Assembly (NCBI GenBank): GCA_004297205.1
Contig: SCUL01000002.1
Span: 143,156-186,593 of the forward strand
Length of the DNA stretch: 43,438 bases
Direction: 5' to 3'
DNA from: Patescibacteria group bacterium
GTDB lineage: Bacteria; Patescibacteriota; Patescibacteriia; 2-12-FULL-57-11
Both the position numbers and the translations under genes were made by a program. The first letter of the stretch is position 1, and each line of letters begins with the position of its first letter. The notes below the pieces were generated by a model. It was not told the origin of the DNA. It was given only the letters and a program-made list of their open reading frames with translations, and searched no databases. Below, one piece after another: positions 74 through 18,345 of the stretch.

Positions 74-2620
<2,547 letters not shown>

Positions 2621-2621
2621 G

Positions 2622-3569
2622 TCAATGCGTTATTTCCTTCCAGGCCTCCCAGGCAGGACTCGTCGTTTGCCCGGCGCCGAGCAAACCGGCCGAGCCGAAC
2701 GGACGGGGCGCGGCGGCCTGATCGTAGAGGAACGACCAGACGACAAAGCGCGGATCCGCGCCGCCGACGAGTTCCGGCAGACGCCGCACGTAGTCGGCGG
2801 CCTCCTTGGCATCGCTCTCCCAGCCGCCACCCGCACCCTGGCGGAACCAGCCGGTTTCCGTCACCGCGATGCGCTTGTTGGTGTGCGAACGGACCTGCGA
2901 AAAGTAATCGGCAGGAATGTCGGACGGTTCCTTGAAGGCCAGCGCCGGATAGAACGTGAAGGCAATCAGGTCGGCGTCCGGAAACAGCGCCAACAGCTCC
3001 CACTGCGCTTTGGAGGGATCGTCCTTGCCGCCATAGAGCCCGCCGCGCCGGCCGAGCAGCCACTCGTACTGGAATACCGGGAAGACCTGCGCGTCCGGTG
3101 CCGACTGCTTCACCGCAGCGCGCGTCTCCGTGAACAATTCCGCGAACGACCGCAGCGTCTTGTCGTCGTACTCGCGGTTGATCTCGTTGCCGAGTCCGAT
3201 GAAGTCCGGTTTCCGTTCCTTAGCGAACGCCACAACGGCATCGCGGAATGCCGCGCGCTGGACCGGATTGGCGATCTCAGCCGGCGTCGGCTGGGTGACG
3301 ATGGCGATGGCCAACCCCTGCCGTCGCCCCTCCTGCGCCACCACGTGCGGCGCGCCCGCGGGCTGCGTCAGGTCCTGCCAGCGTCCGCCCCAGGTCAGCA
3401 GGCCGCCCGCTTCTTTGGCTTTGGCAAAGAACGCCGGGAAGTCGGTGGCGGAGAAGCTCGCCGGTGACAGCGACACGCCCCACAGCGTCCCCTGCGGCAA
3501 CGACGAAGCCGGCGCGCATCCGGCGCCGAGCAGAAGCACTGCAAAGATTGTTGTGACGATGCCTTTCAT
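2622..3569 (-). CDS. Lipoprotein with putative clan GH-A glycoside hydrolase (TIM-barrel) domain
   Basis: Start taken at [18 protein letters not shown] (lipobox); GNEIN resembles the acid/base motif and VTETGW the nucleophile motif. Confidence 0.7.
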
Positions 3570-3576
3570 GCAAATT

Positions 3577-3603
3577 CTGTCATCCTGAGCGGAGCGAAGG
3601 ATC
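3577..3603 (+). repeat. REP-like unit, left inverted repeat of GIY-YIG element
   Basis: ctgtcatcctgagcggagcgaaggatc; inverted match at 3922-3948 and direct copy at 4342-4368. Confidence 0.85.
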
Positions 3604-3894
3604 ATTCCAGCGACCGCTCGGGTTTAAATCGTTCCATTGAGGGTTCACACCATCAATGAGCACGTTCTTACGTTTCCGTGTCCAACCCTTGAGCTGCTTT
3701 TCGCGCTCGACGGCCGATCGAATGTCGTTTGTTTCCTCGAAATGGATGAGTTTCGATAGATTGTACTTCGCCGTGAAGCCGGGCACGAGCTTCTGACGAT
3801 GCTCCTCGATTCGACGTGTCAGATCATTCGTAACGCCGATGTACAGCACCGAGTTCAAATCGTTCGTCAGGATGTAGACCCAGTATGTGCTCAT
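3580..3894 (-). CDS. Small GIY-YIG endonuclease
   Basis: YWVYIL...LYIGVTNDLTRRIEEH...A..REKQLKGWTRKRK; start taken at MSTYW; last codons (DPSLRSG*) are encoded by the repeat. Confidence 0.9.
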   Translation of the reverse strand: MSTYWVYILTNDLNSVLYIGVTNDLTRRIEEHRQKLVPGFTAKYNLSKLIHFEETNDIRSAVEREKQLKGWTRKRKNVLIDGVNPQWNDLNPSGRWNDPSLRSG

Positions 3895-3948: not shown

Positions 3949-4326
3949 TTACTCAATCTCGGGAGAAAAGTCTACTTGATGCTCGGGGATTCCGAGCGAC
4001 ATTCCGTACGCTTTCACCAGGTCGTACTCTTCCGGTTTCGATCGATTGATTCTGAATATCCTCCCCGGAAAGATGATGACGTGCGTCGTCGGATTCTTGA
4101 AGTCCGCGTACCAGCTCGATGGATCCGAAATGAGCGACGTAGACAGCTTCTGCACGACTTTTTCCGCCTTATCTTCTGCAATCTCAACCGTATGCAGGGT
4201 CCACTGTTTCAGCCAGGGTGTCTGGTGCGAATCCGTAACCTGTTCGATGTTCGTTTCCAAAATATCGACGTCATTCAAGACTGAAGGTTCGCGCAGACTT
4301 TCCTCGATGATAATTCCCTTGTACAT
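3949..4326 (-). CDS. Hypothetical protein (125 aa)
   Basis: Protein-like composition (WTLHTVE, WYADFKN, HVIIFPGRIF); fills the gap between repeats in the uvrB-uvrA strand direction. Confidence 0.75.
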   Translation of the reverse strand: MYKGIIIEESLREPSVLNDVDILETNIEQVTDSHQTPWLKQWTLHTVEIAEDKAEKVVQKLSTSLISDPSSWYADFKNPTTHVIIFPGRIFRINRSKPEEYDLVKAYGMSLGIPEHQVDFSPEIE

Positions 4327-4443: not shown

Positions 4444-6471
4444 TCATAATTTCTTCTTGTTCTTGTCCGGCACGGTCAGCTTCTTGCGCAGCGCCTTCAC
4501 TTCGTCGCGCAACACCGCGGCCAATTCGAACTGTAGCTCCTTGGCCGCCTCGCGCATCTGTTTTTCCTTTTCCTTGATGAGCTCCTCCGGTGACTTGGAC
4601 GAGGCCTGCGCTTCGAGCGCCAACGCCTTGGCGGCCAGGTCTTCTTCCTTCTTGCGGACAAAACCTTCCGTGATGTCCTTGATGCGCTTTTTGACGGTGT
4701 GCGGCGTGATGCCGTGTTCCTCGTTGTAGGCCGTCTGCAAAGCGCGGCGGCGGGTGATTTCATCGAGCGCGCGGCGCATCGAGCCGGTCACTTCGTCCGC
4801 ATACATCAGCACCACCCCGCTGACGTTGCGGGCGGCGCGTCCCGCGGTTTGCATGAGCGACGTTTCCGAACGCAGGAAGCCTTCCTTGTCGGCGTCGAGG
4901 ATGGCGACGAGCGTCACTTCCGGCAGGTCGAGCCCTTCGCGCAGCAGGTTCACGCCCACCAGCACGTCGAAGGTCCCCTTCCGGAAGTCGGTCAGAAGCG
5001 CAATGCGCTGCAAGGTGTCGACGTCACTGTGCAAGTACTTGGCTTTGACTTTCTCGCGTTCCGTGAGGTATTCGGTCAGGTCCTCCGCCATCTTCTTGGT
5101 CAGCGTCGTCACCATGACGCGCTCCTGTTTGTCGACGCGGGTGCGGATCTCGCCAATCAGGTCTTCGACCTGGCTCTTGGTCTTTCCCTTCACGCCCGTC
5201 ACCGGACGCACGTCGACCGCCGGATCGATCAAACCGGTCGGACGGATGATCTGCTCCACGATCTGCTCCGAGACTTTGCGTTCGTAGACGCCCGGCGTGG
5301 CCGACATGAAAATCACCTGTCCGACGCGCTGTTCGAATTCATCCGCCTTGAGCGGCCGGTTGTCGGCGGCCAGCGGCAGGCGGAAGCCGTACTCGATCAG
5401 GGTGCGCTTGCGGCTGGCATCGCCCTCGTACATGCCGCCGATCTGGGAGACCGTGACGTGCGATTCGTCGATGACCGTCAGGAAATCTTTCGGGAAGTAG
5501 GACAAGAGCGTGTCCGGCGGCTGGCCCGGCGCGCGTCCGTCAAAGGCGCGGCTGTAATTTTCGATGCCGTGGCAGAAACCGATGTTCTCGATCATCTCCA
5601 AATCGAACTTGGTGCGGCGTTCCAGCCGCTCGGCCTCGAGCAGTTTGCCTTCCTTCTCGAATTTCTTGAGCTGGCTGTCCAACTCGGTGCGGATCTCCTT
5701 GATGGCACGCTGCCGCTCCGGGCCGGTCGTCATGTAGTGCTTGGCCGGGAAGATCCAGACGTCCTCGATGCTGTCCTTGGTCTTGCGCGTCACCGGATCG
5801 ATCATCAAAATCTCCGTGACCTGGCCGGAGCGCGACATGATGCGGTAGACGATCTCTTCATTGGCGGGCATGACGTCGATCGTCTCCCCGACCGCGCGGA
5901 AGCTGCCGCGGACGAGGTCGGCCGTGGTGCGCGTGAATTGCATCTCGATCAGCCGGCGCAGCACGTCGCTGCGTCCGGCCTTGCCGCCGCGCACGATGTG
6001 CAGCGTGCTCCCCTCATAGTTCTGCGGACTGCCGAGACCGTAAATGCAGGAGACCGAGGCCACGATGATGACGTCGCGGCGCGTGAGAATCGCCTGCGTC
6101 GCGGCATGGCGCAGCCGGTCGATCTCTTCGTTGATCATGGCTTCCTTCTCGATGTAGGTGTCGGTGCGCGGCAAATACGCTTCCGGCTGGTAGTAGTCGT
6201 AGTACGACACGAAGTATTCCACGGCGTTCTTGGGGAAGAACTCGCGGAACTCGTTGCAGAGTTGCGCGGCCAGCGTTTTGTTGTGGGCGATCACCAAGGT
6301 CGGCCGCTTTACCTGGGCGATGACGTTGGCCATGGTGAAGGTTTTGCCGGAGCCGGTGACGCCCAAAAGCGTCTGGTAGCGGTGGCCCTTTTGGATGCTC
6401 TCAACCAACCCGGCAATGGCTTTGGGCTGGTCTCCTGCGGGTTTGTACTCGGTGGAAATCTTGAAATCCAT
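4444..6471 (-). CDS. uvrB: Excinuclease ABC subunit B
   Basis: [17 protein letters not shown], beta-hairpin [38 protein letters not shown]-terminal UVR coiled coil; start taken at MDFKIS. Confidence 0.97.
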
Positions 6472-6543
6472 ACCAAAAATCAGCCCGCGCGGGCGTCCTC
6501 CCTGGCCCACTGGGGATTTCTCCTACCCTAGCACAGCCCCTGA

Positions 6544-6576
6544 ATAAAAAGAACGGACAGCGCGATCAGCTGTCCG
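6544..6576 (-). terminator. Intrinsic terminator
   Basis: Stem cggacag/ctgtccg overlapping the stop codon, followed on the minus strand by ttctttttatt. Confidence 0.65.
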
Positions 6577-7012
6577 CGGGCGGGGGCGGATCGGTATCCG
6601 ATTCCCGCTCGACCGTCGTGACCTCGCCGTCCTCGACCTCCATGACGTCGTTCTCGTCGGCCAGCGGCTCGTCGTCGAGGCCGTCGTCCTCCTCGGGCGC
6701 CGATTCGTAGATCAGCTCGGGGCCCATCGAGACGCGCGCCGGACGCTCCGAAGCGCGGGTCAAACGGGTGACGATCTCCTGCATCCGTTCGGCGGTGAGC
6801 TCGCCGCGCCCGTTGGCGCGGGCCAGCCGGATGACCAGCTCGACCTTGATGAGGTCACCGTCCTCGTCCGTGGCCGGCAGATCCGGCAGCGGATCGTTGA
6901 ATCCGGCGCAGATCTCCCGGGCCGTCGCGTCGCTCAGCCGTTCGTTCATCCGGGCGCGGGCGATCTTGACGATGAAGTCCTCGAACTGCGTGTCGGCCGT
7001 GGATCCGGCCAT
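6566..7012 (-). CDS. Hypothetical protein with strongly acidic C-terminal tail
   Basis: GGAGG 4 nt before ATG at 7012; own terminator; tail EEDDGLDDEPLADENDVMEVEDGE. Confidence 0.75.
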   Translation of the reverse strand: MAGSTADTQFEDFIVKIARARMNERLSDATAREICAGFNDPLPDLPATDEDGDLIKVELVIRLARANGRGELTAERMQEIVTRLTRASERPARVSMGPELIYESAPEEDDGLDDEPLADENDVMEVEDGEVTTVERESDTDPPPPADS

Positions 7013-7047
7013 GATGCCTCCAGACAGGCGATGGTACGCCTGCTCCC

Positions 7048-7076
7048 TCGGTACCGCAAAAAGAGCCACGCGTCAA
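7048..7076 (-). promoter_or_regulatory. Candidate sigma70 promoter TTGACG-N17-TACCGA
   Basis: Exact 17-nt spacing, lying between the upstream terminator and the SD of the 7012 gene; the -10 match is weak. Confidence 0.4.
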
Positions 7077-7084
7077 GAGTTGGG

Positions 7085-7126
7085 ATAAAAAAGAGACCGC
7101 CTCTGTCCCGAGGGACGTCAGCGGTC
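7085..7126 (-). terminator. Intrinsic terminator
   Basis: Stem gaccgc/gcggtc with inner gtccc/gggac, then tctctttttta on the minus strand. Confidence 0.65.
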
Positions 7127-8488
7127 GAACTTCACCTCCCGCACGGGAAGCGGCTCGTCACCGGTACCGCGCTCGTGGGCGCGCACGAAGGTCTCGTGCT
7201 CGCCGAGAGCGATGCCGTGCTCCGCAGCGAGAGCAACCGCCCTTAGAGACGGATGATAGCTCTTTGGCAGCTGACGGACGAACCAGGTCACGCCGTGCCG
7301 CCGCACCGTGCGGAGCGGCTGCTCGATCGAACCAGCGTCGCTCGGAGGACGCTGGATCCGAGGCATCACGGTCGCCGCCAGACGCGCCGTGATTGCTTCG
7401 GGGATGCCCCCGCCGGCGGCCAGCTCCCGCTCAAGAGCGTCTACGGGCGGCAGAGCATCCGCAACGGACACCGGCACCACCAGGTCGTGCACGCGGGTGA
7501 GCAACAGCAGTCGCCAAAGAGGGTAGGCCTTATGGAGACCGTTCGCCTCACAGACCTCGCGGACTCCCACCTGGGAGAACCCCATGGAGAGATGGCCATC
7601 GAGACCCAGGTTCCACAGCGACCATGTCACGACGTCCTCTCCCCACGACCATACACGATCCGCGCAAACAGGCTGGCCGTGAAGCTCGAGCGAGTTCGCC
7701 GCGCGCGGCCGTGCATTTCGAGCCCGACGCATGTCGCAGGAGAAGATGAGACAGCAGGTTCGCTCGCCGAAGCGATCGTTCACCCACTCGTTCCCTCCGT
7801 CGTCCTGTTCCGCGAATGCGATGACGTCGTTGGGGGGCACGAGAAGGTCAGAGTGAGAGTAGCACGCCTTCACGCCGGTGCGGCGCTCCAGACGAATCTT
7901 CTCCCACATGGCGTCCCCCCACTGGTTCAGCTCGTCCATGTCCAGACGTTCGGCACGCGCCTCGACGACCTGTGCGAGCCTGATGGTCTCGAGCAGCCGA
8001 GACGGGATGCGGATCACCCCGTCAAGGAACCTCATGTCGACGCCGTCCAAACCTGCATTGAAGTGCGCGCCCAGCCCGGCATCTGTGGTGAGCATCACCT
8101 CACGGATGTTGAGATCCGGACCCGCAGGCAGACCAAGATCTCCGAACTGTCCGCGGAGAAAGCCCTCCAGCGCATCTGCGCGGAAGCGCATCATCGCGCG
8201 CGTCTCGACCTGCTCCATCAGGCGATCGACGTGATGATACTCCGGCTTGTACGGCGCCTGGAGATCAGCGAAGTCTCCGAACTTGCGCTGAACCCCCAAG
8301 TAGAGCTTCCACATCAGCGCAGCGGTCGCACGGGGTTCAGAGCGGACCACGAGCGGAAGAAGCGCGTTCGTGAGCTGGCGCTCGGCCACACTATCGTACT
8401 TTCCCTTGACCGAACGGTGGATCCTGGTGACCAGCGTGCTCGGCAAGGACATGATGAACTTGCTCGCCACGAGTCTTCGCATGGACAT
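7118..8488 (-). CDS. Hypothetical protein (456 aa), no family recognised with confidence
   Basis: Long ORF with GGAGGT 5 nt before ATG, own promoter and terminator; C-terminal motif HGVTWFVRQLP...ETFVRAHERG. Confidence 0.85.
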   Translation of the reverse strand: MSMRRLVASKFIMSLPSTLVTRIHRSVKGKYDSVAERQLTNALLPLVVRSEPRATAALMWKLYLGVQRKFGDFADLQAPYKPEYHHVDRLMEQVETRAMMRFRADALEGFLRGQFGDLGLPAGPDLNIREVMLTTDAGLGAHFNAGLDGVDMRFLDGVIRIPSRLLETIRLAQVVEARAERLDMDELNQWGDAMWEKIRLERRTGVKACYSHSDLLVPPNDVIAFAEQDDGGNEWVNDRFGERTCCLIFSCDMRRARNARPRAANSLELHGQPVCADRVWSWGEDVVTWSLWNLGLDGHLSMGFSQVGVREVCEANGLHKAYPLWRLLLLTRVHDLVVPVSVADALPPVDALERELAAGGGIPEAITARLAATVMPRIQRPPSDAGSIEQPLRTVRRHGVTWFVRQLPKSYHPSLRAVALAAEHGIALGEHETFVRAHERGTGDEPLPVREVKFDR

Positions 8489-8521
8489 TTTCCACCTCCA
8501 ATTTGTGGGTCCACGCGCGTA

Positions 8522-8594
8522 TGCCTAACATTTTTTCAGGTTCCTGTCAACCATCCCGTCAACCGTTGACAGGAAGCCTGTTTTCGGCTTTACT
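8522..8594. promoter_or_regulatory. Divergent promoter pair embedded in an 11-bp perfect inverted repeat
   Basis: ttcctgtcaac (8541-8551) N13 gttgacaggaa (8565-8575); each arm holds TTGACA; N17 gives TAGGCA (minus) and TTTACT (plus). Confidence 0.6.
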
Positions 8595-8642
8595 ACGCCC
8601 TCGTTCATTAACAACCGAGCGGAAGAAAGGATCGGAATCTCG

Positions 8643-11600
8643 ATGAACCAGGTCAAGGGAAAGCGACACATGCTGGCGCTCATCGCCGGCAGCCGTCTCT
8701 CCCCCGAGGAAAAGCGTTCGTTCATCAACGAGCTGCTCGTCTCGGGCGAGGTCACGGAACACGATGTCGCGGAGATCATGGCCGGCGACATCGAGAAGAA
8801 CCTGGACAGCTACGCCGAGGTGATCCGCAGCGACGAGGTCCTGCGGTTCCTGTGGGAACGGTTCCGCGACCGCCCCGCATACCTCGCCCGTGCGCTCGTC
8901 CAGGCGCGTCCGGAGATCTTCTACTGCTACGGCTTCGCCTTCCGCCTGTCGCTCAAGCTGCGGGCGGATCTCGGCATCGTTTGGGTGCCGCCGCGGCACC
9001 CGGGCGCAGGCGGGGGTGGAAGCGCACCCGATGCGCCCCTCGCCGGCCTGCCGCAGGCCGTGGAGCAAAATATCTTCGGTCTCGAAGTGGAGTGCCGCTT
9101 CCGCGAACACCTTTACTTCTTCAACCGGAGCTTCGACGAAGGGCTCTCGCTCCTCGACGAGGAAATCTCCCGCGCGCAGACCGGCCACGAGCGGCGCGTC
9201 CTGCGTGCCGCGCGGAAGCTGGCGGCGGATCTGATCAAGATGCCGCTGCCGGGGGTACGGACCGAGTTCAACGGTTCGCCGTTCCCCGGGCTCCACGTGC
9301 GCTGGTGGCTCGACGCCGCCCGCACGCGGCCGCGGCTGCTCAACATGGGCGACACCGGAAGCTACAAGACGTCCTTCGCGGCCATCGCGATGCGCGTCTT
9401 CGGCTGCAAGCGGACGCTCGTGCTGTGCGCCCCCCACGCGCGCGAGAACTGGCAGCGCGAGCTGCTGGGGTACTTCACGGCCGAGGACGAGCCGTCGGTG
9501 CGCGTCGTCGAGAACCGCAAGGATCTCGACCTCGACACCGGCGAAGAGTTCACGATCGTCGGCTACTCCGCGCTGGTCCACGAGGAGACCGTCACCTCGC
9601 TCTGTGCGGGCGGCTACGACGGACTCATCCAGGACGAGTGCCAGTACGGGAAGAGCATCGGCACCGGAGCGGCCAAGAGGGCCCTGGCGACGCTGCGGCT
9701 CACCCGGGAGCTGCCGCTGAAGCGCTTCACCGCGCTCTCGGCGACGCCCTGGGAAAACCGCCCGGAGGAGATCGCCGCGCTGGCCGTGGCGCTCCGTCCG
9801 GAGCTGTTCTCGACGCCGGAGAGCTTCCTGGCCAGCGGCGCGGCAAAGAACCCGCGTTTGCTGCGCGAGCTCTTCAGCGAGCAGATCCTGGAGATCGAGC
9901 TGCGCGAGGTCACCGACCTCCCGCCGATCACTCCAAGGCCCTGGGAAGACCTGTTCGGCGCCGTGCCGGTGCAGCCCTTCCCGCGCCACCGGGCCATCTA
10001 CGCCCGCGTCCATGACGACGAGAGCGAAAAGCTGCGTCCCGCCGAGAAGGCGCTGCGCCTTCTCCTGGCAGCGACGCATCCGCCGCTCCTCGCCGGACGG
10101 GTCACCTGGCCCACCCACGCGATGGAGCCGCTCAAGGACTGGCGGGTGTCCACCAAGCTGGACTGGCTGAAGCGCTTCATCACGGAGCGCATCGCCACCC
10201 AGAAGATCGTCATCGGCTCGGGGCTGTATGCCGAAGGCATCACCCGCATGAGCAGCGAGGACGATGAGACGCCGTGGGTCGCGCAGCAGCTCAGGACCTG
10301 GTTCGGCAAGGACCAGGTGCTGGTGCTCGACGGGACGGTCGGTCTGCACGGTAGTGCCGGCGAGGCGAGCCCCCGCGAGTTACTGATCCGGCGCTGGCGG
10401 ACGGATCCGGACGCCCGGATCCTCCTCGTCTCTATGCAGGCCTGTCCGGACTCGGTGAACCTCACCGTCGGGCGCCTGCCCGGCGTGGAGCGGCTCGCCA
10501 TCACCGCGCTGTCCTTCGGATGGAAGCCGTGGAAACAGTTCCTCGGCCGCTTCTGGAGGCAGGGGCAGGGCGTTCCGGTCGAGTACCGCGTGCCGGTGCT
10601 GGTCGGAACGATCGACGACGATCTGCTGCGGCTGAACCGCGCGAAGTGGCATGCCCAGCAGCTCTTCCGAGCGCTGGTGCCGGTCACGGACCGCGAGCTC
10701 GCCTACCTGCGGATCGACGCCGGCGACGCCATGCGGGAACTCCTGCGTGACGCCTTCGAGCACGTCAACATGATCGCCGCGATGCTCCGCGGTCGGGGCG
10801 AGGACGGATGCGACCGGGTCTACGGCGGTGCCTACGGCGCCACCTCGAGAGCCGAAGCGTTCGCCCGTCACTTCGTGGAGATCGAGGACTTCGCGACGTC
10901 CGGCCACGTCGCGCGGTTCCAGAAGACCGTGATTGACCGCATGACTGCAGTCGGCATGGTCGATCCGGACCGGATCCTCGACGGCGGCTGCGGTCCGCTG
11001 ACGCTCGAGCGCCGGCTGAACGCGCCGGTGCACGGGATCGACATGAACCCCCACATGATCGAACTCGGGAAGGCCTTGTCCCCGCATCAGGGGAAGAACG
11101 CCTCCGTCGGACGGCTCTCCGCGATGCCTAAGATGTGGAAGCATGCCTTCCACCTCGTGTGCGCGTCGCTCGTCCTCGACTTCTCCAGCATCGACGCTGG
11201 CGGGGCGGACGGTCCGGAGCGGCTGCGGATCCTGCGCGAACTCGTCCGCGTCGCCCATCCTCACGGGATGATCTGGCTGACCTGGAACGAGAGCACGCAC
11301 ACCGACCAGACGCTCGCCGCCTGGAGCGACGCGATTGCCCGCACGGGTATGTCGCTCGTCCCCGGGCTGTGCGGACTGGTGCGCGCCACCGACCATCGCG
11401 AACAGCCGTTCGCCTTCTGGTCGCTGGCGTTCTCACCGAACGGCCTCGAGCCGCGTTTCCCGCGCGTGGACGATTTCCGGTTCGCCTTCGAACTGGAGCG
11501 CGTCCGCAGGAAGCGCGGCGGAAACGGAAACGGAGGGACGCCGCCCAAGAAGCGGCGAATCCAGCACGAGCGCTTCGAGGTCCTCACCGCCGACGGCGCG

Positions 11601-11774
11601 GTGACGGATGCCGAAGCCTCGCGGCAGTCCATCCTGCGGGAGGTCAGCAGGTGGGCGGCGCAGGGCGTGCGCGACCGCCGTCTCGGCCGGGACGCCTCGA
11701 TACTCCTCGAGGAACTCGGCAGCGACTGGCGCGTCTTGCGCCGGCTCCACGAGCTTGGCATCATCCAGGTCTGA
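8643..11774 (+). CDS. SNF2-family SF2 ATPase/helicase fused to a C-terminal class I SAM-dependent methyltransferase
   Basis: Motif I GDTGSYKT, Ia LVLCAPHARENW, II DECQ, III SATPWEN, IV KLDWL...KIVIGS, VLDGT, V LVSMQACPDSVNL, VI WKP..QFLGRFWRQGQ...GTIDD; MTase ILDGGCG, GIDMN, FHLVCASLVLDF, LRELVRVAHPHG. Confidence 0.85.
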   Translation: MNQVKGKRHMLALIAGSRLSPEEKRSFINELLVSGEVTEHDVAEIMAGDIEKNLDSYAEVIRSDEVLRFLWERFRDRPAYLARALVQARPEIFYCYGFAFRLSLKLRADLGIVWVPPRHPGAGGGGSAPDAPLAGLPQAVEQNIFGLEVECRFREHLYFFNRSFDEGLSLLDEEISRAQTGHERRVLRAARKLAADLIKMPLPGVRTEFNGSPFPGLHVRWWLDAARTRPRLLNMGDTGSYKTSFAAIAMRVFGCKRTLVLCAPHARENWQRELLGYFTAEDEPSVRVVENRKDLDLDTGEEFTIVGYSALVHEETVTSLCAGGYDGLIQDECQYGKSIGTGAAKRALATLRLTRELPLKRFTALSATPWENRPEEIAALAVALRPELFSTPESFLASGAAKNPRLLRELFSEQILEIELREVTDLPPITPRPWEDLFGAVPVQPFPRHRAIYARVHDDESEKLRPAEKALRLLLAATHPPLLAGRVTWPTHAMEPLKDWRVSTKLDWLKRFITERIATQKIVIGSGLYAEGITRMSSEDDETPWVAQQLRTWFGKDQVLVLDGTVGLHGSAGEASPRELLIRRWRTDPDARILLVSMQACPDSVNLTVGRLPGVERLAITALSFGWKPWKQFLGRFWRQGQGVPVEYRVPVLVGTIDDDLLRLNRAKWHAQQLFRALVPVTDRELAYLRIDAGDAMRELLRDAFEHVNMIAAMLRGRGEDGCDRVYGGAYGATSRAEAFARHFVEIEDFATSGHVARFQKTVIDRMTAVGMVDPDRILDGGCGPLTLERRLNAPVHGIDMNPHMIELGKALSPHQGKNASVGRLSAMPKMWKHAFHLVCASLVLDFSSIDAGGADGPERLRILRELVRVAHPHGMIWLTWNESTHTDQTLAAWSDAIARTGMSLVPGLCGLVRATDHREQPFAFWSLAFSPNGLEPRFPRVDDFRFAFELERVRRKRGGNGNGGTPPKKRRIQHERFEVLTADGAVTDAEASRQSILREVSRWAAQGVRDRRLGRDASILLEELGSDWRVLRRLHELGIIQV

Positions 11775-11783
11775 ACGGCCTGG

Positions 11784-11810
11784 GACGGACTTCGGTCCGT
11801 CTCTTTTTTT
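11784..11810 (+). terminator. Intrinsic terminator with C(UUCG)G tetraloop
   Basis: gacggac-ttcg-gtccgtc followed by tcttttttt. Confidence 0.85.
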
Positions 11811-11814
11811 ATCA

Positions 11815-11843
11815 TTGACAGTTCGCTTCAAGTCCGGTAATGA
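11815..11843 (+). promoter_or_regulatory. Candidate promoter TTGACA-N17-TAATGA
   Basis: Perfect -35 directly after the terminator; GGAGGT SD at 11860-11865. Confidence 0.5.
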
Positions 11844-11869
11844 CGATTCGTCACAAAACGGAGGTGCAG

Positions 11870-12463
11870 GTGACGCTACTGGATATGAATCACAAGGAGC
11901 TGGCCCGCCAGCTCATGGGCGCACAGCTGATCGTCGGCGGCGTGGCCGCGACGATTCTGGAGGCGCAGGGGTACTCCCGCAAGGAGAACAGCGATCCGCT
12001 CTACCGGCCGCTGCTTGCGCTCCCCCCGGGCAGCGTCTACTGCCCGCGGCGTCGGAACGCGATCCTGACCCTGATCGCCTGCCGCGACGGCGGCGAACCG
12101 GGCGGCTGCATCCTGCTCCGGACGATCGAGGTGGATGGCGCGGTCGTGCAGGGGCCGGGCCGGGTCTCCGAGGCGCTCGGGATCACGACGCACGCCCAAC
12201 AGGGCACGCTCGTCCCGCACGGGGACGACGTCATCGAGCTGCAGCTCGGCGCAGGTACGAAGGCGCCGTCGGTGCCCATGCCGCCCCCGGGCGGCCGCGG
12301 CATCGGCGACGAGACGGTCAAGCGGCTGATGCCGCTGATCGTCAAGGCGTACATGAAGAGCGGCAAAGGCGTCTCGTTCCAGGCCTATCTGAACAAGACC
12401 CTCGCGGAGTGCCCAACGGAGCGCGATCTCCGCAGGCGCCTGCGCGAACAGACGCAGGGCTGA
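11870..12463 (+). CDS. Divergent 3-methyladenine DNA glycosylase (AAG/MPG family) homologue, probably catalytically altered, with C-terminal helical extension
   Basis: ELARQLMGAQL, ILEAQGY (cf. IVETEAY), PPGSVY, CILLRTIE, GPGRVSEALGIT; GTG start 4 nt after GGAGGT. Confidence 0.75.
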   Translation: MTLLDMNHKELARQLMGAQLIVGGVAATILEAQGYSRKENSDPLYRPLLALPPGSVYCPRRRNAILTLIACRDGGEPGGCILLRTIEVDGAVVQGPGRVSEALGITTHAQQGTLVPHGDDVIELQLGAGTKAPSVPMPPPGGRGIGDETVKRLMPLIVKAYMKSGKGVSFQAYLNKTLAECPTERDLRRRLREQTQG

Positions 12464-12495
12464 ACGCAGTCGGTCACGACTCGCGTTCTTTTTTT
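12462..12495 (+). terminator. Intrinsic terminator
   Basis: gaacgc-agtcg-gtca-cgact-c-gcgttc followed by a T7 tract. Confidence 0.7.
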
Positions 12496-13840
12496 AAATC
12501 TCGTACGTCTCCCCCGGCGCGGCGGGAGTGACCGGAAGCATCAGGTCCTGGGCCACGCGCTGGGAGAAGCTGTCGGCCACGGGACGGTCGGCGTGGGAGA
12601 CGTAGACGTGCTTGGGCATGCCGCCGCGCAACCATTCCAAAAGCTTGTCCTGGTCGGCGTGGGCGCTGTAGGCGCCGATGGCCACGACGCGGCAGCGGAC
12701 GCGGATCTTGTCGCCGTGGATGCGCACCACGCTCTCGCCGTCGTAGATGCGGCGCCCGAGCGTCCCCGCGGCCTGGTAGCCGATGACCAGCACCGACGAG
12801 TTCTTGTCCGGCAGGACGCGCTTCAAGTGGTGCAGGATGCGGCCGCCGTTCATCATGCCGCTGCCGGCGATGATGATCTTGGGTTGCGGCGCGTCATTGA
12901 CGCGCTTGGACTCCTCGCGGCTCGGCGTCATGGTCAGCCCCGGAAACTTGAAGAAGTCGTCGCCGCAATCCACGATGCAGGCCGCCTTGCGGTTGAAATA
13001 GGTCTCGTTGCGGCGGAAGACTTCCGTGGCTTTGATGGCCAGCGGCGAATCCAGAAAAACCGGAATCCGCGGGATGTGGTTGTGCTCGACCAGATGGTTC
13101 AGCTCGTAGAGCAGCTCCTGGGTGCGTTCGAGCGCAAAGGCCGGGATGAGCACCGTCCCGCCCAGCTTCACGGTTTCCAAAATGACGCGCTGCAGTTTCT
13201 CCGAGCGCTCGCGCGGATCTTCGTGCTTGCGGCCGCCGTAGGTCGCCTCGATGACCACCGCATCGGCCGCGGGCAGCCGCTCCGTGGGCCGCATGATCGG
13301 CACGTTGCGGTTGCCGAGGTCGCCGGAAAAGACGACCGACTTCCCGTCGGCCCAGATTTCGACGAAACTCGAGCCGAGAATATGTCCGGCGTCATGGAAC
13401 ACCGCGGTCACGCCCGGCGCGACTTTGGTTTCCTGGCCGTAGGGCACGGTGCGCACCAGGCGCTTGGCTTCCTGCATGGCGGCGCCGTCGTAGAGCGGCT
13501 CCCACTCTTTTTCCCGCTCCCAGTCTTCCTGCATGACGTGGAGCGTGTCTTCCCAGAGCAGCTCCATGAGTTGCGCCGTGGGCGGCGTGGCGTAGACCGG
13601 CGCGGTGCTGCCGAGGTGCGCCAGCACCGGAATGCGCCCCGTGTGGTCGGTGTGGGCGTGCGTCACGATCACGGCATCAAGACCGCGCACGTCGTACGGG
13701 AAGGCTTCGCGGTTGCGCTCGTTGGCGGTGCGCATCCCCTGGAACAGGCCGCAGTCAACCAGGACGCGCGCCTTGGCCGTCTCGATCAGCATCTGGGAGC
13801 CGGTGACCTCGCCGGCCGCGCCGAAGAACGTCAGTTTCAC
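12494..13840 (-). CDS. MBL-fold beta-CASP ribonuclease family protein
   Basis: KLTFFGAAGEVTGS, LVDCGLFQG, HAHTDH, AGHILGS, FSGDLG, SAHAD; GTG start overlaps the upstream TGA (GTGA). Confidence 0.92.
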   Translation of the reverse strand: MKLTFFGAAGEVTGSQMLIETAKARVLVDCGLFQGMRTANERNREAFPYDVRGLDAVIVTHAHTDHTGRIPVLAHLGSTAPVYATPPTAQLMELLWEDTLHVMQEDWEREKEWEPLYDGAAMQEAKRLVRTVPYGQETKVAPGVTAVFHDAGHILGSSFVEIWADGKSVVFSGDLGNRNVPIMRPTERLPAADAVVIEATYGGRKHEDPRERSEKLQRVILETVKLGGTVLIPAFALERTQELLYELNHLVEHNHIPRIPVFLDSPLAIKATEVFRRNETYFNRKAACIVDCGDDFFKFPGLTMTPSREESKRVNDAPQPKIIIAGSGMMNGGRILHHLKRVLPDKNSSVLVIGYQAAGTLGRRIYDGESVVRIHGDKIRVRCRVVAIGAYSAHADQDKLLEWLRGGMPKHVYVSHADRPVADSFSQRVAQDLMLPVTPAAPGETYEI

Positions 13841-14070
13841 ACCGCGCCCTTCTCGGCGCCGCGCTTGTAGTCGGCGTAACGGCTGCGCAGGTCGTCGCGC
13901 AGCTGGGAGATGTTGTCGTCGTCCTCCACTTCGGCCCAATCCACCTTCTCGTTCAGGACCACCTCGACCATGTCATCCCATTGTTCCTGCGAGGTGACGC
14001 CTTCGGCTTCGGCCCGCTCGCGGACCGCGCCGTACAACTCTTCGGGGCTGTATTCGAGATTCTCGACCAT
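13837..14070 (-). CDS. Small acidic hypothetical protein (77 aa)
   Basis: MVENLEYSPEELYGAVRERAEAEG...; translationally coupled to the beta-CASP gene. Confidence 0.7.
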   Translation of the reverse strand: MVENLEYSPEELYGAVRERAEAEGVTSQEQWDDMVEVVLNEKVDWAEVEDDDNISQLRDDLRSRYADYKRGAEKGAV

Positions 14071-15128: not shown

Positions 15129-15854
15129 ATGCGTCTTGCCATTGCCTTGACCACCACGCTGGTCGTCCTGTTTTCGATTGCAGGTGCCGGCATTGTCGGT
15201 GCGCGGCCGCTCTACGCGCCCGCCGCCATCATCACCGCCTTCACCGCGCCCGCTCCGGCCGCGGATGGTTTGCGCGTGGCGGCCGACGTTCCGGTCGTCC
15301 AGGCCGCGACGGCCTCGGTGGACCTGCCGATCGACGGATACGCCGTGCGTCGGACGCTCAAGACGTTCGGCACCTACGTGGACGACGACCGCTTTGTGGG
15401 CTACCACGCCGGCGAAGACGTGGAGTTCGTTTTGGAGAAGGCCGACGTGCCGGTGCACGCCATCGCCGACGGCACGGTGTTGTTCGTCGGCTGGGCTACG
15501 GGCTACGGCGGCCTGATCGTCGTGGCGCATGACGTGGACGGCGAGGACATTTCCGCCATCTACGGGCACGTCAACCTCGGCTCCTCGACGCTCACGGCCG
15601 GAGACCGCGTCGCACGCGGGCAGCTCCTGGCCAACCTGGGCCGGGGATTCAGCAAAGAAACCGACGGCCGCCGCAAGCATCTCCACTTCGGCCTCTATCC
15701 CGGACACGAGCTGCGCACGGCCGGCTATCTCAACGACTCCAAGGAGCTTTCGGACTGGATCGATCCGGCCGCGTTTTTCACGCGCCACGGCATCGCGGTG
15801 CCGGAGCTCGATCTCCCGGCAGTGGTCACGCAGTCCGAACAACCGACGCGTTGA
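15129..15854 (+). CDS. Secreted M23-family metallopeptidase
   Basis: Signal-like N-terminus; HAGED (HxxxD), VHAIADGTV, GYGG, YGH, HLHFG (HxH). Confidence 0.9.
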   Translation: MRLAIALTTTLVVLFSIAGAGIVGARPLYAPAAIITAFTAPAPAADGLRVAADVPVVQAATASVDLPIDGYAVRRTLKTFGTYVDDDRFVGYHAGEDVEFVLEKADVPVHAIADGTVLFVGWATGYGGLIVVAHDVDGEDISAIYGHVNLGSSTLTAGDRVARGQLLANLGRGFSKETDGRRKHLHFGLYPGHELRTAGYLNDSKELSDWIDPAAFFTRHGIAVPELDLPAVVTQSEQPTR

Positions 15855-16800
15855 TCCCCCACTTCGGCGGGAAGAAGAAGTGGATGGGTTCCGGCGCCGC
15901 AACAAAGCGGGCCTTTATTTTTTTGCGGGCGCTGGCCAGTTCCGGCACGGCCACGCGGCAATACTTATCCGTCTCGCAGAACAGGCCTTGCGCGTCGATG
16001 GCCTGGATCGGTCGTCCCCACAAGCCGTGAAACCCCAACCCGAGCCGTTCAAATTCCTGCTGTTGCCGTTCGACCATCCAAAGAATCGCCTCAGCCGGTG
16101 AATGGTCGCCGAGCGAGGTGAAAACTTTTTTCAGGCCGCGCAGCGCACCTGGGCCCGGCTTTGTAAAATCGTTTTCCGAAAAGTTGATGAGGTCCGAATA
16201 ATTCAGGTCGATGGCGATTTGATAGGCCATGAAGTCGCCGATCAGCGGGAAGCTGCGCAGCAGATGGAAGACGGCCGCGAGCGATGGCACCGCCAGCAGC
16301 CGCGCGCCTAAGTTCTGTTTGAGGAACATGTCTTGAAACAGGGCGACGTGGTTGCGGTGCTTCTCATCGAACCCGTAGGCCTTGTTGGCGCACAGGATGA
16401 AGGCGCCGGTGTAGAGGCCGCCGTTCTCACGCTTGGCCGCATCCAGCGCCTTCTCAAACGAGCCGTCGCGCAGGTCGCCGAGCGTCGGCGTGCGGCCGAG
16501 CGTTTTACGTACGCTGTTCCAGGTGTCGATGTCGCTGAAGGTGCGGAAGGCTGTGATCTGAAACAGCCGATCCTCCGGCGTACACGGCTCACCGTGATAG
16601 GCGACCTCGCGGATCAGATATTGCGAAACACGGTCAGCGGCGCGGAATACGTTGCAAAACTTGTAGGTCTGCAAAATCGGATCGTCGGTCCACGGTCCCG
16701 GCTCCCCTGCCACGCGCCGCTCAAAGATGCGCTGCCGCTCGGCAGCGAAGCGCCAGTAGATGTCGAAGACGTTTGGCCGAGGAACTGGCGGAGCCTTCAC
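15826..16800 (-). CDS. aGPT-Pplase1 / 5-hmdU DNA kinase helical domain family protein (putative amino acid:DNA transferase)
   Basis: YWRFAAERQRIFERR..G...PWTDDPIL..YKFCNVFRAADRVSQYLI, YTGAFIL, IGDFMAYQIAIDLNYS, PGPGALRG, AQGLFCETDKYCRV. Confidence 0.8.
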   Translation of the reverse strand: MKAPPVPRPNVFDIYWRFAAERQRIFERRVAGEPGPWTDDPILQTYKFCNVFRAADRVSQYLIREVAYHGEPCTPEDRLFQITAFRTFSDIDTWNSVRKTLGRTPTLGDLRDGSFEKALDAAKRENGGLYTGAFILCANKAYGFDEKHRNHVALFQDMFLKQNLGARLLAVPSLAAVFHLLRSFPLIGDFMAYQIAIDLNYSDLINFSENDFTKPGPGALRGLKKVFTSLGDHSPAEAILWMVERQQQEFERLGLGFHGLWGRPIQAIDAQGLFCETDKYCRVAVPELASARKKIKARFVAAPEPIHFFFPPKWGINASVVRTA

Positions 16801-17434: not shown

Positions 17435-18157
17435 TCAATAGATTCGTTTCCAACGCCTGAAACTTTTAATATCTGCAGTGCTCAAATCGAACCATTCGCC
17501 ATTCATGCGTTTTCCATCAAACCTTCTATGCCAGTATGCCTCAACCCCACTAGGGTCGTCGGTATTAATCGAGTGAATCAAATCGAGACGCTCGGGCAAT
17601 TGAATTCGAATTTCATTTCCGCGGCGTACTGTATCGAATGTCTTACCAATCTTGTAGTACCTGCCCGATTTGAACAAATACACGCTCCCTAGCCTCTCAT
17701 TCAGGTTGCCTTCCGTGGTATCGGCCCGCTTGTCATGTTTTTCAAGAATAGACTGACAAAGACCGATGATATCTTCGTTGCCACCTTCAGTTTTACAAAA
17801 TTTAACTACCCTCCTAACAAGCTCTTCTTTCGATCCAAAACGCATAAAGACTTTCGAACTTGGAAAACCTTCGTCGGTATTTTCTGCCACGCGAAACTCT
17901 TTGAATGTCGGAAACTTCCCCAACTTGGAGGTGAGCTCAATTGCTTTCTTAATCAAGAATTCGTCTGAGTAAGCGGTCTGAAGCCGGTTCGGTGTAAAAC
18001 CTGCCTCCGTTTGCGCCTGGCTAAAGCGGGCCCAATACTTCCCCCATTCATGAGGCTTGATTCCGGTTTCCTTTTCAAATCTGTTCATCCCCAAAGGATT
18101 ACCACCGTTCTGGGTGGCCGTGCGTTTGATTTCCTCCAATATTTCTTGTTTGTTCAT
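17435..18157 (-). CDS. MUG113/T5orf172-type GIY-YIG nuclease with N-terminal helical repeats
   Basis: GSVYLFKSGRYYKIGKT...EAYWHRRFDGKRMNGEWFDL; visibly AT-richer than flanks; start taken at MNKQEIL. Confidence 0.85.
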   Translation of the reverse strand: MNKQEILEEIKRTATQNGGNPLGMNRFEKETGIKPHEWGKYWARFSQAQTEAGFTPNRLQTAYSDEFLIKKAIELTSKLGKFPTFKEFRVAENTDEGFPSSKVFMRFGSKEELVRRVVKFCKTEGGNEDIIGLCQSILEKHDKRADTTEGNLNERLGSVYLFKSGRYYKIGKTFDTVRRGNEIRIQLPERLDLIHSINTDDPSGVEAYWHRRFDGKRMNGEWFDLSTADIKSFRRWKRIY

Positions 18158-18242
18158 ATAAACACGTAACGGCCGGGTCCCTGATCCGCAACTCAAACGA
18201 AGTACCTCTATCACGACTTACCGAGCCAATCCTAACACAAAC

Positions 18243-18271
18243 AAAAAGCCCCCGACAAAAGTCGGTGGCTT
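18243..18271 (-). terminator. Terminator downstream of tRNA-Gln
   Basis: aaagccaccgac-tttt-gtcgggggcttttt on the minus strand, abutting the CCA end. Confidence 0.7.
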
Positions 18272-18345
18272 TGGCTGGGAGACTAGGATTCGAACCTAGA
18301 TAAACAGGGCCAGAACCTGTTGTCCTACCATTAGACGATCTCCCA
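18272..18345 (-). tRNA. tRNA-Gln (anticodon CTG)
   Basis: tgggagatcgtctaatggtaggacaacaggttctggccctgtttatctaggttcgaatcctagtctcccagcca: acceptor tgggaga/tctccca, anticodon arm acagg-ttCTGgc-cctgt, TTCGAAT T-loop, encoded CCA. Confidence 0.97.

Follow-up and report, generated by a model that had tools for sequence, protein, structure and literature searches.

What is the function of a gene cluster in which an SNF2 ATPase fused to a methyltransferase is followed by a protein with the fold of an alkylpurine glycosylase? We analyzed such a cluster in a stretch of 43,438 nucleotides from a Patescibacteria bacterium (GCA_004297205.1, contig SCUL01000002.1, positions 143,156–186,593 of the forward strand), hereafter the window, in whose own numbering coordinates are given. 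An earlier note on this DNA had singled out four neighboring genes, transcribed divergently from a palindromic region, as a candidate new system; the four open reading frames (ORFs), their sizes and the divergent palindromic region are all present as described there. Our comparison shows that two of these genes form the core of a chromosomal cluster restricted to one lineage of Patescibacteria. The first, SNF2-MT (8643–11774, plus strand), encodes 1043 amino acids, in which an SNF2-type motor for double-stranded DNA is fused to a class I methyltransferase. The second, the AAG-like gene (11840–12463, plus strand), starts 65 nt after it and encodes a 207-residue protein in which an AAG-type fold is joined to a C-terminal module that we call CTM. 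The remaining two genes, BIG and ACID, lie on the minus strand and are much less widely shared.

The components were mapped with iterated hidden Markov models (HMMs) on the six-frame ORFs of 42 loci plus the window. SNF2-MT has 42 full-length homologue clusters, nearly all of about 1040 residues, and every named one belongs to Uhrbacteria, Sungbacteria or Parcubacteria; its loci comprise 19 GTDB species representatives (of 185,579) and nine metagenome loci. Seven records of metagenome-assembled genomes (L005, L007, L009, L014, L016, L019 and L023) are titled 'uncultured Gammaproteobacteria' or 'Saccharibacteria', and these titles look like placeholders or mislabels. Searches for SNF2-MT and the AAG-like protein found no relatives in IMG/VR, among GenBank phages or among PLSDB plasmids. 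Among the informative loci, by which we mean the 21 distinct ones that contain DNA downstream of an intact SNF2-MT, 20 have the AAG-like gene directly after SNF2-MT (family identity 38–81%); in the remaining one, L003, it is 2 kb away. The spacing between the two genes varies from an overlap of 4 nt up to a gap of 349 nt, and three loci show an overlap or a gap of at most 4 nt. All four window genes occur together again in the closest relative, locus L004, and the four-gene set, which the earlier note had treated as a unit, is not itself conserved: ACID is present in two loci and BIG in nine.

SNF2-MT consists of an N-terminal region without assignment, an SNF2 ATPase core (approximately residues 235–690; 9345–10712, plus strand), a class I S-adenosylmethionine (SAM)-dependent methyltransferase domain (approximately residues 765–930; 10935–11432, plus strand) and a C-terminal tail. 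The Pfam SNF2-rel_dom model scores below threshold on the window protein (19.9 versus 24.9 bits). The family profile matches the Sulfolobus SNF2 enzyme 1z63 over residues 248–691, covering both RecA-like lobes, at E 3e-12, with further matches to INO80, Fft3, Mot1 and ISWI, and PHROG 62, a 'DNA helicase', is matched at E 2e-22. In the alignment of 29 family sequences on which all residue and motif counts for this protein rest, motifs II (DEC(Q/H)), III (SATPWEN) and VI (QFLGRFWRxGQ) vary little or not at all, and Asp331, Glu332, Ala367, Thr368, Gln632, Arg636 and Arg639 are found in all 29. The Walker A motif is atypical, GDTG(S/T)YKT; in the window protein (residues 235–243; 9345–9371) it reads GDTGSYKT. 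The residue before the P-loop lysine is Tyr in 21 sequences, Gln in four, His in two and Phe in two, and it is Gly in none, which departs from the canonical GxGK(T/S). The lysine itself, Lys242, is invariant (29/29), and Thr243 is present in 28 of the 29. We know of no SNF2 enzyme with such a Gly-less Walker A motif.

The methyltransferase half is recognized by Pfam above threshold at residues 776–879 (Methyltransf_31, 28.9 bits with a cutoff of 27; Methyltransf_11, 26.1 bits with a cutoff of 21.2). Together with the profile match to 1z63 and the 42 homologue clusters, these matches uphold the fusion as the earlier note had described it. The SAM-binding signature of class I enzymes is in place: motif I is ILDGGCGP and the acidic post-I residue is Asp800, with Asp780, Gly784 and Asp800 invariant and Gly782 present in 28 of the 29 sequences. 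None of the 29 contains the (D/N/S)PP(Y/F/W/H) catalytic motif by regular expression, and the same kind of search finds the C5 motifs PCQ and ENV in one and two sequences, respectively, at positions that are not conserved. The nearest solved structures by profile are class I enzymes of the small-molecule type, namely 3sm3 and ToxA (8rdl/5je3). Because SNF2-MT lacks a DNA-methyltransferase motif and lies nearest to small-molecule types, the proposal that this domain marks DNA is unproven.

The AAG-like protein comprises a minimal AAG/FMT_C-type fold that is rich in beta structure (residues 12–136; 11873–12247, plus strand), a disordered linker and the three-helix CTM. By sequence its kinship is faint. 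The Pfam MPG model (PF02245) gives 25.1 bits with a cutoff of 27 and the NCBIfam model 30.4 with a cutoff of 182, both below the curated thresholds, and the family profile retrieves no PDB chain. By predicted structure the AAG fold is confirmed: Foldseek searches with an AlphaFold model (mean predicted local distance difference test score, pLDDT, of 79) place five human AAG structures first, including 3qi5, 3uby and 1f6o (E 1.8e-5 to 5.6e-4; template-modeling score 0.42 over the whole two-domain model), followed by the C-terminal domains of ArnA and FMT. An hhalign comparison of the family with human AAG gives a probability of 94.5% and E 8e-8, and it pairs Gln43 with Glu125, Tyr45 with Tyr127, Pro69 with Tyr159 and Arg72 with Tyr162.

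In human AAG, Glu125 is the catalytic general base, Tyr162 intercalates and Tyr159 stacks. The window protein retains none of these three residues (Gln43, Arg72 and Pro69, respectively), and its description as a disabled glycosylase stands for this one protein. It does not extend to the family, in which the position equivalent to Glu125 is Glu or Asp in ten of 20 sequences, including the L004 protein (Glu), and Gln, Lys, Arg, Val or Ser in the other ten. Since the position is acidic in just half of the sequences, catalysis is not under uniform selection in this family.

CTM (residues 147–204 of the AAG-like protein; 12278–12451, plus strand) spans about 55 residues, predicted by AlphaFold to form helices at 157–174, 180–190 and 194–205 (pLDDT approximately 82–88), with the consensus L.R.MP.I...Y...F..FL......C.TE..L. 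It has no match in Pfam or the PDB. A CTM HMM finds matches at E 1e-10 to 1e-24, all of them in gene runs that contain SNF2-MT (about 43 sources); the window AAG-like protein is matched at E 2e-24. In 16 loci CTM also ends a neighboring protein of about 125 residues. The window and L004 lack this small CTM protein; in both, ACID sits in the place that its gene takes in other loci. Furthermore, one to three HNH_repeat proteins end in CTM (L012, L013 and L015), and CTM is the N-terminal part of DUF4379 zinc-finger arrays (L011, L021 and L031), of an INT_rpt array and of a helix-turn-helix (HTH) array (L018), so that four unrelated kinds of DNA-binding array are fused to it. Two further candidate occurrences were rejected. 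A BLAST hint of CTM within the SNF2-MT N-terminus (E 0.013) gave an hhalign probability of at most 2.5% for every segment, and ACID as a diverged small CTM protein gave at most 8.6%. CTM is a module without earlier description and, with the DNA-binding arrays that carry it, the unifying feature of the cluster, which appears to be a machine for handling DNA that no catalogue lists. That it is common to the AAG-like protein, the small protein and the arrays suggests a hub with interchangeable DNA-reader subunits.

One branch of the family departs from this plan. In L021 (8015–11520, the same as L029) and L031, the SNF2 protein has 707 residues and ends after the ATPase core, without the methyltransferase domain; a CTM-(DUF4379)x5 protein follows, and a TraG/VirD4-like gene is nearby. 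The AAG-like gene was not found in L021, L029 or L031 within the DNA examined. The joint absence of the methyltransferase domain and the AAG-like gene fits a functional coupling between them.

Upstream of SNF2-MT the cluster is variable. BIG (7118–8488, minus strand) encodes 456 residues in the window, and iterated HMM searches link it to proteins of 513–640 residues that adjoin SNF2-MT in eight other loci (L001, L002, L004 with two copies, L007 with two, L008, L010, L019 and L032). In six of the loci with BIG, its gene overlaps the small CTM gene or lies 2 nt away from it, an arrangement of translational coupling. The window protein is 35–37% identical to the two L004 paralogues. BIG has no match in Pfam, NCBIfam, PADLOC, PHROG or the PDB, and its AlphaFold model, built on a four-sequence alignment, is unusable (pLDDT 43). 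Its C-terminal motif of about 55 residues (residues 385–440; 7169–7336, minus strand), R.vR.H.VvwHiRrLP.G.hASp.A..lA.e.Gi.L.enETFVR.H.RG, has no Pfam, PDB or viral match. In a library of 1.84 billion proteins, BIG belongs to an orphan family with at least 602 representatives (at 50% identity) at E ≤1e-3, many of which share mainly the C-terminal motif and most of which occur away from SNF2-MT; most have 440–500 residues, and the one named member is from Patescibacteria. Three sampled contexts of the family outside the cluster contain neither SNF2-MT nor CTM. Many of these relatives lie on contigs of 1.6–2.5 kb, short contigs being the norm in that collection. BIG was also considered as a transposase or insertion sequence and rejected as such, there being no flanking terminal inverted repeats and no viral or plasmid relatives.

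ACID (6566–7069, minus strand) is a 167-residue ORF with an acidic tail; comparison with the L004 orthologue indicates that the true start is likely the ATG at 7012, which would give 148 residues. The protein has two SHOCT-like helical repeats, a conserved C-terminal DTDPPP and a weak DUF1707 match (E 0.022), and it is found in the window and L004 only, with 34% identity between the two. In other clades the upstream slot is filled by the unrelated clusters B (eight loci) and C (six loci). BIG, B and C are not distant homologues (hhalign probability at most 0.3%), and sequence-profile searches of the PDB with BIG, B, C and a further family, D, returned nothing. BIG is thus probably a fast-evolving, lineage-specific accessory in a variable slot.

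What, then, does the cluster do? We tentatively favor a role in the surveillance or discrimination of foreign or modified DNA, of the kind seen in genetic conflict, over a role in core repair, while granting this reading somewhat less than an even chance. It is favored because the accessories vary, the DNA-binding arrays are of homing-endonuclease type and the active site is relaxed. Several features have the look of conflict: the upstream slot is occupied by one or another of three large proteins, BIG, B and C, that are not homologous; between the window and L004, BIG and ACID are 34–37% identical compared with 81% for SNF2-MT; and both BIG and the HNH_repeat-CTM proteins occur as tandem paralogues. 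Five Uhrbacteria loci (L009, 14365–15537; L012; L013; L015; and L022) close with a gene for a DGQHR/DndB-like protein of 350–390 residues with an invariant DDGQHR, which follows the small CTM gene and precedes trigger factor. Likewise, in the Sungbacteria locus L040 (4913–17201), the SAM synthetase gene metK lies directly upstream and the cluster is followed by genes for a Cas12a-like protein, Cas1, Cas2 and a tyrosine integrase.

We propose that subunits which read DNA dock onto the SNF2-MT hub through CTM and can be exchanged for one another. Among them, the AAG-fold subunit would flip and inspect bases, with an Arg wedge in place of Tyr162, and would often not be catalytic, while the SNF2 motor would translocate on, or remodel, the bound DNA. 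Because the lineage without the methyltransferase domain also lacks the AAG-like gene, the methyltransferase may be coupled to the AAG-like subunit, and its target would be non-canonical: either a partner protein or an endocyclic nitrogen of the flipped purine. BIG and ACID, in the clade of the window, would be fast-evolving accessories in the variable slot. A more specific version of this scheme can be imagined, although we consider it rather unlikely: a modular 'writer-reader' resembling chromatin remodeling, in which SNF2-MT is the hub and writes a non-canonical methyl mark, such as an endocyclic N-methylpurine, that the relaxed AAG fold reads and does not excise. The CTM-docked readers would then be the AAG-fold base-flipper and the zinc-finger, HNH-repeat, INT-repeat and HTH arrays.

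Several observations weigh against a conflict role. The surroundings of the cluster are housekeeping genes (uvrA, uvrB, dnaX, dnaK, dnaJ, rplS, rpoD and trigger factor) and most loci contain no mobility genes, which makes the cluster look vertical and core-like. Between the window and L004, SNF2-MT (81% identity) and the AAG-like protein (72%) evolve at the rate of neighbors such as the beta-CASP protein (83%) and DUF1761 (78%), with UvrB at 63%; the core therefore behaves like its housekeeping neighbors, and it is the accessories to its left, BIG and ACID, that are fast-evolving or have been replaced. The lack of relatives in PADLOC, IMG/VR, phages or plasmids leaves no positive tie to defense, and no nuclease domain or other obvious effector was identified. 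On the enzymatic side, ATPase activity is not assured because the Walker A motif lacks the usual Gly before Lys. Given the housekeeping context and the lack of an identified effector, the preference for surveillance over repair and remodeling is a tentative one.

The strongest competing explanation is genome maintenance, which we judge to be on the unlikely side but worth serious consideration. Here, the AAG-fold protein would find alkylated or deaminated purines, acting as an enzyme where it has Glu or Asp and otherwise as a sensor of lesions; the SNF2 motor would clear proteins or stalled polymerases for excision repair in the manner of Mfd or ALC1; and the methyltransferase would regulate a protein partner. 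The AAG fold itself speaks for this explanation, as do the housekeeping context, the rate of evolution shared with the neighbors and the absence from phages and plasmids. So does the company that the cluster keeps: in the window, uvrA (74–2620, minus strand) and uvrB (4444–6510, minus strand) both lie no more than 8 kb away, L004, L002 and L001 each have either uvrA or uvrB at such a distance, a beta-CASP gene is nearby (12494–13939, minus strand in the window) and a UDG gene lies near the cluster in L004. However, the window and these three loci are the only ones with uvr genes near the cluster and they belong to one clade, so the uvrB adjacency to which the earlier note drew attention reflects clade-level synteny, and a functional link was rejected. 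Maintenance also sits poorly with the lack of conservation of the catalytic Glu and the pocket residues of the AAG-like protein, and with a family found in merely 19 of the GTDB representatives. It leaves unexplained both the homing-endonuclease-type recognition arrays on CTM and the swapped, non-homologous, fast-evolving proteins upstream. Between uvrA and uvrB the window has two genes without a Pfam match (2622–3605, minus strand, 327 residues; 3949–4326, minus strand, 125 residues).

A sequence-targeted remodeler of the nucleoid or of transcription, comparable to Mot1, RapA or ISWI, is less probable still. Its CTM-bearing DNA binders would recruit the SNF2 motor, and the methyltransferase would modify a nucleoid or transcription protein. 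The best solved relatives of SNF2-MT are indeed remodelers (SsoRad54-like, INO80, Fft3, Mot1 and ISWI), the methyltransferase resembles class I enzymes that do not act on DNA, and the proteins fused to CTM include HTH, zinc-finger and repeat arrays. The control region adds a further point. Between BIG and SNF2-MT, the divergent intergenic region (8489–8642) contains an inverted repeat, TTCCTGTCAAC-N13-GTTGACAGGAA, at 8541–8575 (arms 8541–8551 and 8565–8575), and a promoter-like pair for SNF2-MT, TTGACA at 8566–8571 and TTTACT at 8589–8594 with 17 nt between them. The conserved, operator-like palindrome thus overlaps the -35 element of SNF2-MT itself. Both the core of the region, GTCAAC-N-GTTGAC, and the promoter-like pair are invariant in L004; similar inverted repeats were undetected in loci more distant than L004. 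A remodeler does not explain why an AAG-fold partner is nearly universal or why the AAG-like gene was lost together with the methyltransferase domain, and genes for RNA polymerase or nucleoid proteins are not consistently linked to the cluster.

The possibility that four unrelated neighbors, each with its own terminator, have come together by chance is very doubtful for the cluster as a whole and is excluded for SNF2-MT and the AAG-like gene, which are adjacent in 20 of 21 loci and share a module with further neighbors. Terminator-like hairpins do stand at every gene end, bounding the block as the earlier note had said: one that has a run of T separates SNF2-MT from the AAG-like gene (11782–11803, plus strand), and others stand at the ends of the AAG-like gene (12468–12481, plus strand), BIG (7093–7109, minus strand) and ACID (6553–6577, minus strand). 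A scan of the region finds seven hairpins versus 3.3 ± 1.8 in shuffled sequences, with all four gene ends covered. The separate promoters that the same note had assigned to each gene are not borne out, a strict sigma-70 scan of the region having returned zero promoters. For the accessories, accretion retains some force. ACID is limited to two loci, BIG-family members are usually solitary elsewhere and uvrB adjacency is synteny. In addition, the left flank of the block (window 4444–8488 versus L004 1–5388) is far more diverged than the right flank (81–83%), and the left flank of L004 carries an extra inositol-phosphatase gene and a second BIG paralogue; this unevenness suggests that the two sides differ in history. 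Nevertheless, BIG adjoins SNF2-MT in nine distinct loci, six of them with the overlap or 2-nt coupling to the CTM gene.

The wider surroundings contain several further genes. The block's GC content (0.61–0.69) is the same as that of the remainder of the window. At 15826–16800 (minus strand), 3.4 kb from the block, a 324-residue protein matches Pfam HMUDK_hel, the helical domain of 5-hydroxymethyl-dU DNA kinase, at E 1.6e-100, a gene of the thymidine-hypermodification type on the chromosome of a bacterium of the candidate phyla radiation (CPR). A functional link of this gene to the cluster was considered and rejected, as no relative of it is present in any other locus examined. A 259-residue protein encoded at 17435–18214 (minus strand) combines HNH_repeat with a MUG113/T5orf172 (GIY-YIG-like) domain; its gene adjoins tRNA-Gln (18272–18345, minus strand) in a dip of GC content to 0.50–0.54 (versus approximately 0.64), and the region 17435–18345 may be an insertion of the homing-endonuclease type. 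Amid dnaX, dnaK and dnaJ lies a gene for an 848-residue TraG/VirD4-like type IV coupling protein (21586–24132, minus strand), and the low GC content at 34–35 kb corresponds to the 5′ part of dnaK and an adjoining gene for a trypsin-like peptidase. In locus L042 (169–3170), a gene for a 650-residue HATPase_c_3 (MORC-like) protein and a 350-residue partner lie 5 kb upstream of SNF2-MT.

If the hub-and-adaptor scheme proposed above is true, the cluster would represent a new architecture for prokaryotic DNA surveillance or remodeling, CTM would be a new protein-docking module, and the AAG fold would gain a role as a reader subunit instead of a repair enzyme. The setting lends this weight, since CPR bacteria have tiny genomes that keep few non-essential genes and their biology is poorly known. 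If the cluster serves merely lineage-specific repair, it still offers a series of AAG-fold proteins from nature, some with the catalytic Glu and some without it. Four families defined here can be put to the test by others: SNF2-MT, the CTM-bearing AAG-like protein, the small CTM protein, and BIG with its widespread C-terminal motif.

How does the cluster compare with known systems? The earlier note had not recognized the gene set as a named system, and this agrees with our finding neither a PADLOC model nor a paper that describes it. That it is a divergent copy of DISARM, BREX, Dpd, MADS or a Type I, III or ISP restriction-modification system is scarcely credible: SNF2 and methyltransferase do occur together, as in DISARM class 1, and homologues of the cluster's proteins give weak matches to PADLOC-DB (dated 2023; DpdE at E ~1e-3 and mad2 at E 1.6e-6), but the four window proteins match nothing there at E ≤0.1, the BIG, B, C and D families match nothing, no equivalents of DrmA/B/C, PglZ, BrxC or DpdA/B/C were recognized among neighbors that were scanned with Pfam or PADLOC or pre-annotated, no DNA-methyltransferase catalytic motif is present and a nuclease domain was undetected.

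In DISARM class 1, as here, one multi-gene cluster encodes both activities, in that case as the SNF2 helicase DrmD and the methyltransferase DrmMI. Here, by contrast, a single polypeptide contains both, its methyltransferase part is of a generic class I type and lacks the N6-adenine motif, and in place of DrmA, DrmB and DrmC there are an AAG-fold protein and DNA binders that carry CTM. Human AAG/MPG and the bacterial 3-methyladenine glycosylases share the fold of the AAG-like domain, which keeps the motifs I(L/V)E..(G/A)Y, PG.(V/L)Y and G.CV(L)LR. Unlike them, this domain has merely about 125 residues, a linker and CTM replace the C-terminal third of AAG, Arg replaces Tyr162, Pro replaces Tyr159, and the Glu125 position is Gln in the window and variable in the family. 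The Sulfolobus SsoRad54-like enzyme 1z63, the best solved match, and bacterial RapA are stand-alone prokaryotic SNF2 motors; their Walker A is the canonical GxGKT, whereas that of SNF2-MT is G(S/T)YKT, and SNF2-MT differs from both in its methyltransferase fusion and its 230-residue N-terminal region. In fungal DNMT5, an SNF2 ATPase is fused to a C5 methyltransferase (PCQ/ENV), and ATP hydrolysis is coupled to methylation of a flipped base. DNMT5 and SNF2-MT both unite an SNF2 motor and a methyltransferase in one polypeptide; DNMT5 is eukaryotic and without an AAG-like partner, and SNF2-MT has no C5 PCQ/ENV domain. Finally, Type ISP enzymes of the LlaGI type combine an Mrr-like nuclease, an SF2 translocase, a gamma-class N6-adenine methyltransferase and a target recognition domain in one chain. 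SNF2-MT similarly places an ATP-driven SF2/SNF2 DNA motor and a methyltransferase in a single chain; the nuclease, the N6-adenine methyltransferase and the target recognition domain were not found in it, and recognition seems instead to be delegated to the subunits that carry CTM.

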